This document shows positions 10,916 to 12,172 of a stretch of 64,000 nucleotides of DNA, piece by piece. This DNA is from Pachysolen tannophilus NRRL Y-2460 (taxonomy: Eukaryota). Numbering within the stretch: the stretch's first letter is position 1; each line of letters starts with the position of its first letter. The position numbers were made by a program, and so were the translations under genes. A model generated the notes under the pieces. It worked only from the letters and a program-made list of their open reading frames with translations. It was not told the origin of the DNA and ran no database searches. The stretch is from positions 413,465 through 477,464 of the forward strand of contig KV454015.1 in assembly GCA_001661245.1 (NCBI GenBank), given 5' to 3'.

Positions 10916-12172
10916 TTACAACAAGTAAATCATTCTTCCCGAGGCATCGTACCCAATCTTTCTATCTTTCTTTGTATCACGTAAACATGTACCATACCTA
11001 TAACCGACTTTACCAACTTTAGCATCAGTAAATTTAAAAATTGATTTTTCTCCTTCTAATATAGGTGCAACAAATGAATTTTGATTATTTTTCTTATGAT
11101 TTTGAGAATCATGATGTGAAGAATGTGCTCCAGTTTCTGAAAGTTTTTCTAAAGTGACTTTGGCAGGTTCAATATCTAATACCCTTGCTGCATCAACAGG
11201 TCCAAAAGGTTCACTTTCTGCTATAGTTAAAAATCTTGAATTTTGAGTCTTTTGAGGAATTGGAATTTCTGTTAAATTTTCTGCATTTCTTTGTGGGTTA
11301 AATAAGGGAAATAATTTATACATAACTTGACTCATTTTTTGCATTTCCGGTGTAACAAGTCCCTAAAAAAAATATATATATATATATATATAAATCAAAG
11401 TTAGTAATTGAGTCTGAATATGAAAAAAAAAAAAAAATCTTTATCAATAAAAAAGAGATCAAGTAACTTATTTTCTCAGCGCATAATTTTATAACCATGT
11501 AAAAATTGTCTTAAAGACTAATCGAAAAATAATATAATTTTGCAAATTCATCATCTTGAATAATTCCCAATCTCTCTAAAAAAAAATAAAAAAATTAAAT
11601 TAACTTACCTGTTGTCTCCATTTGTTTTCAATATCATTTAATTTAATAATAGCTTCTATTCTAGGAATTTTTAAACCATATTTAATTGCAACCTCTTGAG
11701 TTGGTAATTGTTTTTCAACAATATCTTCAACAATCTTAGCTTTTAATTCATGGCTAATTTGTAAATTTGTTCGACAAAATGGATTCAATGGAAATGGTTT
11801 TAAAGCTCTATCTTTTATTTCCAGTCTATTTGGAGCTCTATTATTATTGGCAGTATCATCTTTATCCAATTGAATCTTTAAAGCTTGACCTCTTTCAATA
11901 TCAGGTTTAATATAATTCGTTACATGATCTTGAGGTAAATAAAAATATTTATTTAAATGATATTCTCCTTTAAAATTCTTTGGTCCTAAAAATTCAGCCA
12001 TTTGTAATCTTAAAGTAGTTGTATGTGATTTTGGATCTTTTCTACCAAATGCTTTTGTCTTATATTGTGGATAAGCTAATGTTCTTCTATTACGCACTTG
12101 CATCAAATTAATACCAAACCTCATCATAGAAGAGGCCCTACTGCCTCTTCTTACAAACAGATTACCTGACAT
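10916..12172 (-). CDS. MRPS35: Mitochondrial small-subunit ribosomal protein mS45; two exons, 12172-11609 and 11362-10916 (336 aa)
   Basis: Motifs 'FLGPKNFKGEY', 'LKPFPLNPFCRTN', 'RFLTIAESEPFGPVDAA' and 'VGKVGYRYG'. Splicing joins …KWRQQ|GLVTPEMQKM… in frame, merging two track ORFs. Confidence 0.9.
11363..11608 (-). other. Spliceosomal intron of MRPS35 (246 nt)
   Basis: GTAAGT donor (11608-11603), TACTAAC branch point (11406-11400), TAG acceptor ending at 11363; phase 0. Confidence 0.92.
11472..11559 (-). ncRNA. Intronic box C/D snoRNA with D' guide to 25S rRNA
   Basis: C box AUGAUGA (11554-11548), D box CUGA (11479-11476), degenerate D' AAGA and C' AUGGUUA. Guide UUCGAUUAGUCUUU (11526-11513) is complementary to conserved LSU rRNA AAAGACUAAUCGAA. 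A 12-bp flanking intronic stem encloses it. Confidence 0.75.

Follow-up and report, generated by a model that had tools for sequence, protein, structure and literature searches.

A probable box C/D snoRNA of the CD39/snR83 family in the MRPS35 intron of Pachysolen tannophilus

Results

Host Gene and Intron

The analyzed window is a 64,000-nt stretch of contig KV454015.1 of Pachysolen tannophilus NRRL Y-2460 (assembly GCA_001661245.1), which contains 1202 N. Its minus strand carries a gene of two exons separated by a spliceosomal intron, and a box C/D snoRNA lies within this intron (Table 1). According to the Pfam analysis, residues 124–188 of exon 1 correspond to positions 2–66 of the Bot1p profile (PF12298) and exon 2 corresponds to positions 69–162, the domain being contiguous across the intron. 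Bot1 of Schizosaccharomyces pombe, encoded by the gene SPBC14C8.16c, is the small-subunit mitoribosomal protein mS45. In the available part of the PMC9241596 supplement, orf19.3559 of Candida albicans is given as the orthologue of S. cerevisiae Mrps35p. Since both exons match Bot1p and the C. albicans member of the family is an Mrps35p orthologue, the label MRPS35, under which the original prediction had described the host gene, is sound.

Table 1. Features of the MRPS35 gene and of the intronic snoRNA, with positions in the 64-kb window.
Feature	Position	Strand	Evidence
MRPS35 (mS45/Bot1p family) exon 1, 188 codons, phase-0 junction	12172-11609	-	ORF; Pfam Bot1p E = 1.1e-23
Spliceosomal intron, 246 nt, GTAAGT/TACTAAC/TAG	11608-11363	-	Sequence; Pfam profile contiguity; position kept in relatives
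5' splice site GTAAGT	11608-11603	-	Sequence
External stem, 5' arm AGAGAGATTGGG	11577-11566	-	Sequence; flank duplex compared with shuffles
Predicted mature box C/D snoRNA, ~87 nt	11473-11559	-	Ends placed by inference, the usual few nt past the boxes
C box AUGAUGA (ATGATGA)	11554-11548	-	Sequence; aligns with the family C box in the profile match
D' antisense element (guide) UUCGAUUAGUCUUU, DNA TTCGATTAGTCTTT	11526-11513	-	First 13 nt equal the N. crassa CD39 guide
D' box AAGA, non-canonical, family-typical	11512-11509	-	AAGA(CA) also in N. crassa CD39 and the snR83 RNAs
C' box AUGGUUA, non-canonical, family-typical	11498-11492	-	Identical in N. crassa CD39 and S. octosporus/S. cryophilus snR83
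D box CUGA (CTGA)	11479-11476	-	Sequence; CTGA in the family too
External stem, 3' arm CTTGATCTCTTT	11463-11452	-	Sequence; flank duplex compared with shuffles
Branch-point box TACTAAC	11406-11400	-	Sequence
3' splice site AG (TAG signal)	11364-11363	-	Sequence
MRPS35 exon 2, including the stop codon	11362-10916	-	ORF frame; Pfam Bot1p E = 2.3e-26

Anatomy of the Intronic Element

The motifs that had been proposed for the element (C box, guide, AAGA, AUGGUUA, and D box, with a span of 79 nt from C to D) were all found on the minus strand. As in box C/D snoRNAs in general, a C box of the RUGAUGA type is located near the 5' end and a CUGA D box near the 3' end. The guide is separated from the C box by a spacer of 21 nt, and U 11517, the fifth nucleotide upstream of the D' box, is the one predicted to lie opposite the target A. 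The branch-point A (11401) follows about 75 nt downstream of the D box.

No stem directly adjoins the C and D boxes. The stem joining them is the predicted 12-bp external one, which sits 11–12 nt outside the boxes and has G-U in 4 of its 12 pairs. The duplex of the 30-nt flanks has an energy of -13.5 kcal/mol compared with a shuffled mean of -7.1, and 2 of the 200 shuffles were equal or better. The fold of the whole 141-nt region was unexceptional (z = -0.32), being equalled or surpassed by 66 of 200 shuffles.

Relationship to CD39 and snR83

The window element was compared with the published snoRNA sequences of Neurospora crassa and S. pombe by eye and with a short degenerate motif. According to the available parts of Liu et al. 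2009 (PMC2780460), CD39 is a 73-nt intron-encoded box C/D snoRNA of N. crassa (EU780962), in which the D' guide UUCGAUUAGUCUU is followed by G and then by AAGA, and the C' box is AUGGUUA. Its guide pairs (13/0) with the 26S segment 5'-AAGACUAAUCGAA-3', the target being Am897. The window element is likewise intron-encoded and has the same 13-nt guide, AAGA followed by CA, the same AUGGUUA, and, by prediction, the same target A. It differs from N. crassa CD39 in carrying U before the D' box where the latter has G, which would give 14 pairs instead of 13, and in a longer spacer between the C box and the guide. For N. crassa CD39, another guide, directed to 26S-Am375, has been predicted upstream of the D box; the window element lacks it. 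The host gene of CD39 is not named in these parts of the paper.

The same source lists snR83 as the CD39 homologue of S. pombe and, in the part available, gives none for S. cerevisiae, Arabidopsis, or human. In the available parts of Diao et al. 2014 (PMC4138321), the printed snR83 RNAs of S. pombe, S. octosporus, and S. cryophilus have in common the core UCGAUUAGUCUU-G-AAGACA followed by RUGGUUA. S. pombe snR83 (AJ617351) shares with the window element the guide core (12/0), AAGACA, RUGGUUA, the intronic location, and, by prediction, the equivalent target A, whereas its C' box is GUGGUUA and that of the window is AUGGUUA. The family signature can thus be written as the guide UCGAUUAGUCUU, one nucleotide, AAGACA, a short spacer, and RUGGUUA, and the window element matches it.

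Relatives have also been reported in Candida. One novel C. albicans snoRNA of Mitrovich et al. 2010 targets the same region as Nc_CD_39, according to the available text of Canzler et al. 2018 (PMC5824354), and Donovan et al. 2016 (PMC5033589) describe CD39 as a C/D snoRNA that lies in an intron of orf19.3559 and keeps its synteny in four CTG-clade species. The window element resembles Candida CD39 as a box C/D snoRNA in an intron of the MRPS35 orthologue, a likeness drawn from the published description.

As for Rfam 15, no matches were found anywhere in the 64-kb window at the gathering thresholds. At E <= 10, four matches were obtained in the region 11300–11700, none of which overlapped the snoRNA. 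The CD39/snR83 family appears to be absent from Rfam.

The element belongs to a described family (N. crassa CD39, S. pombe snR83, and Candida CD39), and the novelty suggested for it in the original prediction does not hold: the family, the target, and the host gene (C. albicans orf19.3559) are all already in print. Taken together, the comparisons indicate that the window very probably holds a genuine box C/D snoRNA, an orthologue of fungal CD39 (N. crassa, Candida) and snR83 (S. pombe), which is located in the MRPS35 pre-mRNA and would guide methylation of the LSU nucleotide equivalent to A917.

Predicted Target Site

Box C/D antisense elements are at least 10 nt long and end beside D or D', the target nucleotide standing opposite the fifth position. 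The 14-nt guide is complementary to the N. crassa 26S segments printed in the available part of Additional file 4 of PMC2780460. The 14th pair would be formed by the window U with the preceding rRNA A, which is seen in the CD48 duplex of the same file. In the CD48 D duplex the rRNA strand reads 5'-AUGGGGGCGAAAGACUA-3' and Gm888 is its fifth base; therefore, the A of AAAG-A-CU is N. crassa 897, that is, the CD39 target. The presumed match in the host species rests on these N. crassa segments together with the general conservation of this LSU stretch.

In the part of the source available, N. crassa sites are numbered 20 below their S. cerevisiae equivalents, as in the pairs Am856/Am876 (snR72), Am797/Am817, and Gm888/Gm908 (snR60), and N. 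crassa Am897 thus corresponds to S. cerevisiae A917. The predicted target A would be equivalent to Am897 of N. crassa, Am949 of S. pombe, and A917 of S. cerevisiae. The count of A917 in the original prediction was right, given this offset and the distance of 9 nt between Gm888 and Am897. Position A798 of S. cerevisiae 25S was also considered as the equivalent and was ruled out by the published offsets, which lead to A917.

The site lies 9 nt 3' of Gm908 (snR60), near it and yet distinct from it, as had been noted at the outset. Both snR60 and snR40 (Um898) guide methylation in this part of 25S domain II, within a few nucleotides of the predicted A; they are different snoRNAs with different target nucleotides and have no sequence relation to the window element beyond the boxes. 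The description of the site as one with no known modification in S. cerevisiae agrees with the listing in the available part of PMC2780460, where S. cerevisiae has no CD39 homologue. RiboMeth-seq data on Candida rRNA were not found in the literature searched.

In S. pombe, 25S-Am949, which is guided by snR83, is among the sites identified by low-dNTP (dNTP-dependent) primer extension, and it is one of three S. pombe sites absent from human, plants, and budding yeast, according to the available parts of PMC4138321. This bears on the possibility that the snoRNA is functional but serves mainly for something other than methylation of the predicted A, either through chaperone pairing with helix regions in domain II of the pre-25S rRNA or with a target shifted by one nucleotide owing to a misassigned D' box. 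The D' box is non-canonical, so that the +5 ruler depends on where it is placed; a duplex of 14 bp would also suffice in length for a chaperone-like role, and the site is close to those of snR60 and snR40. Against this, Am949 has been assigned to snR83 in S. pombe, the D' box of N. crassa CD39 was placed at AAGA with the same target A, and the spacing of AAGA is equal in all the published members compared, as far as the available parts of both papers show. A main role other than methylation of this A is thus very unlikely, and methylation at the A917 equivalent is the preferred reading.

Homologues in Metagenomes and the Family Profile

Metagenome contigs were scanned with a pattern consisting of the guide, any nucleotide, AAGACA, 2–16 nt, and RUGGUUA, in which the C and D boxes were not required. 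The scan gave at least 109 loci (designated by L numbers below) with 88 distinct sequences and a GC content of 0.30–0.60. Among the matches listed, a C box, UGAUGN in form or, in one group, CGAUGA, occurs within 45 nt upstream in 107 of the 109 loci, a CUGA D box 8–45 nt after the C' box in 108, and both boxes in 106. The three misses are L001 and L099, which are cut by the contig end, and L072, which has no C box. In the 106 homologues with both boxes among the matches listed, the C-to-D span is 65–83 nt with a median of 77, close to that of the window element (79 nt). The distance from the start of UGAUGA to the guide is 12–27 nt, which corresponds to a spacer of 6–21 nt (among the matches listed).

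Many homologues among the matches listed, for example L009, L049, and L071, have covarying terminal stems beside the boxes, and 25 of the 87 distinct homologue flank pairs (again among the matches listed) beat their own shuffles at p <= 0.05.

A sequence-only covariance model, R1, was built from 83 distinct homologues (alignment A1). In both strands of the window (128 kb), it gave a single match at 11482-11556 (-), with 39.3 bits and E = 2.9e-11, a test that is partly circular in that the homologues were fetched by a signature that the window also carries. Since the profile finds only this one segment in 64 kb, the element is more than a chance assembly of motifs.

The two closest yeast-like relatives among the homologues, L034 and L046, have a GC content of 0.30–0.31 and 50% protein identity to window exon 2. 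When their introns were aligned with that of the window, conservation was confined to a part that begins at the C box and ends a little beyond the C' box (among the matches listed). Ahead of its D box the window element reads UAAAAUUAUGCG, a segment for which neither L034 and L046 nor snR83 show conservation, and the window RNA is therefore probably a single guide.

These data allow the possibility to be weighed that the element is a decaying or silent CD39 relic, recognizable in sequence but no longer assembled into a snoRNP or methylating rRNA in the host species. Its D' and C' boxes are degenerate and far from the consensus, no stem stands directly beside the C and D boxes, the C box-guide spacer, at 21 nt, is among the longest in a family where it measures 6–21 nt (among the matches listed), and the D-side guide is not conserved. 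However, the C box AUGAUGA and the D box CUGA fit the consensus perfectly, the guide is undamaged and would form one base pair more than that of N. crassa, the external stem compensates for the missing terminal stem, and the stretch bounded by the C and C' boxes is the only part of the intron conserved with L034 and L046. The relic explanation is accordingly considered unlikely, and an active snoRNA remains the favored interpretation.

Variant Homologues

An identical D-side element, AUGCGAGCCUCU, was found 12 nt before CTGA in 35 of the 109 homologues, for example in L006, L007, L012, L018, and L019, and UUGCGAGCCUCU occupies this place in four further homologues (both counts among the matches listed). 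This suggests a second conserved target in the homologues concerned, which presumably come from filamentous fungi. This conserved D-side element is missing from the window, from L034 and L046, from S. pombe snR83, and from N. crassa CD39.

In L003, L011, and L081, the sequence before the D box is AUGCAUGGCUUU. The available part of PMC2780460 shows the same antisense element in N. crassa CD4, whose D' guide is directed to 18S-Cm49. It appears, from this sequence identity, that a guide element has moved between snoRNA families.

The loci L044, L056, and L062 are nearly identical to one another and have a variant C box, AUGAUGUGA, with no Bot1p exon upstream; the host or the neighbor of the snoRNA seems to be different in this lineage. 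Another group (L002, L005, L008, L013, L015, L017, L039, L069, L080, L090, L091, L096, and L102) has CGAUGA in place of the UGAUGA C box, and its D' and C' boxes stand farther apart. The loci of the CGAUGA group are still located behind a Bot1p exon.

Conservation of the Host Gene and of the Intron Position

Upstream sequence of at least 300 nt is present in 103 loci, and a tblastn search with window exon 1 gave a match in 67 of them (among the matches listed). All 67 matches share the strand of the snoRNA and reach query residues 185–188 of 188 at their ends. They stop 54–90 nt ahead of the guide, or 133 nt ahead in the case of two loci, the corresponding distance in the window being 82 nt. 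For the remaining 36 loci, 55 upstream ORF segments were scanned against Pfam. Bot1p was found above the curated cut-off in 29 of these loci, with the profile match starting at 1–5 and ending at 64–76. In seven loci (L011, L023, L027, L044, L056, L062, and L071), the Pfam scan found no Bot1p exon within 140 nt upstream. In total, 96 of the 103 testable loci (among the matches listed) have the initial part of the Bot1p/MRPS35 domain, with its end a short way upstream of the snoRNA.

The downstream scan used the 64 loci whose flank measures 650 nt or more. It covered 144 distinct ORFs, and since duplicates were taken once, 57 loci contributed. The second part of Bot1p (from profile positions 56–74 to 147–171) was found downstream in 42 loci (among the matches listed). 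The downstream ORF of L044 encodes RRM_1 and not Bot1p, and in the L002-type group the upstream exon is present with no long downstream ORF.

Thus, the host gene and the intron that holds the snoRNA are the same in nearly all the relatives sampled, with S. pombe as an apparent exception. By the naming convention of S. pombe genes, which we take to apply here, the name SPBC14C8.16c places bot1 on chromosome II. Since snR83 is listed on chromosome III in the available part of PMC4138321, its host in S. pombe is probably a gene other than bot1.

The recurrence of the host gene also bears on whether box-like motifs and complementarity to rRNA could have arisen by chance in an AT-rich intron, the stem serving only to aid splicing. 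At the 28.8% GC of the window, short AT-rich motifs and stems are common, and the fold of the whole region is unremarkable. A chance origin is nevertheless effectively refuted by the co-occurrence of the boxes, by the single R1 match in 128 kb at the E-value given above, and by the same gene and intron position in 96 of 103 related loci (among the matches listed); the guide, D' box, and C' box also match snoRNAs published in the available parts of the two papers. The claim of a box C/D snoRNA inside the MRPS35 intron, with which the analysis began, is supported by the boxes, by the family match, and by the profile match.

Discussion

Box C/D snoRNAs are stable RNAs bound by Nop1, Nop56, Nop58, and Snu13. 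Those in introns are co-transcribed with their host genes; splicing, debranching, and exonucleolytic trimming set them free, and the core proteins that sit on the C/D kink-turn protect them. In P. tannophilus, the CD39 orthologue would be transcribed within the MRPS35 pre-mRNA. Once the intron has been excised, debranching and trimming by exonucleases would release the RNA under the protection of the C/D core proteins. Since no stem stands directly beside the C and D boxes, the external stem may bring the boxes together in place of a terminal stem. From its place next to the degenerate D' box (AAGA), on the upstream side, the guide would then pair with the conserved LSU rRNA stretch AAAGACUAAUCGAA, expected at the equivalent of S. 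cerevisiae 913–926, and direct Nop1/fibrillarin to 2'-O-methylate the A of AAAG-A-CU, which would be selected by U 11517. For the host species, we infer processing, snoRNP assembly, and methylation from the sequence and its published relatives.

In the available part of Lim et al. 2021 (PMC8476143), a snoRNA is proposed as the reason for the retention of an intron in intron-poor fungi, and only the introns of RPL7 (snR39/snR59) and NOG2 (snR191) are singled out. The MRPS35 case resembles these two in that a snoRNA-bearing intron is kept at a conserved position in intron-poor fungi. It differs from them in the function of the host, since RPL7 and NOG2 act in cytosolic ribosome biogenesis, whereas MRPS35 encodes a mitochondrial ribosomal protein. 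The idea put forward in the original prediction, namely that the snoRNA explains the retention of this intron, is strengthened by the same gene and intron position in 96 of 103 related loci (among the matches listed). A broader scenario, to which we give about even chances, is that the MRPS35 intron at Pfam profile position ~66 is ancient, maintained by the snoRNA, and common across much of Ascomycota, and that Saccharomycetaceae then lost the intron, the snoRNA, and the methylation together.

In the literature searched on MRPS35 with snoRNA and on mitoribosomal host genes, the association was found stated only as single-species table entries. The term 'host gene' is not used in the available text of Canzler et al. 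2018 (PMC5824354). The breadth of the association between the snoRNA and the MRPS35 intron may not yet be in print.

As for the P. tannophilus genome, the analysis provides one correctly placed snoRNA gene and a predicted LSU 2'-O-methylation site that is missing in S. cerevisiae. Annotation based on Rfam misses the CD39/snR83 family entirely. If the proposed relationship is true, a guide for methylation of the cytosolic LSU rRNA is tied to the transcription of a gene for a mitochondrial ribosomal protein. The locus would then be a clear case of an intron retained on account of the RNA inside it and of a cytosolic ribosome-modification guide that depends on a mitochondrial-ribosome gene for its expression.
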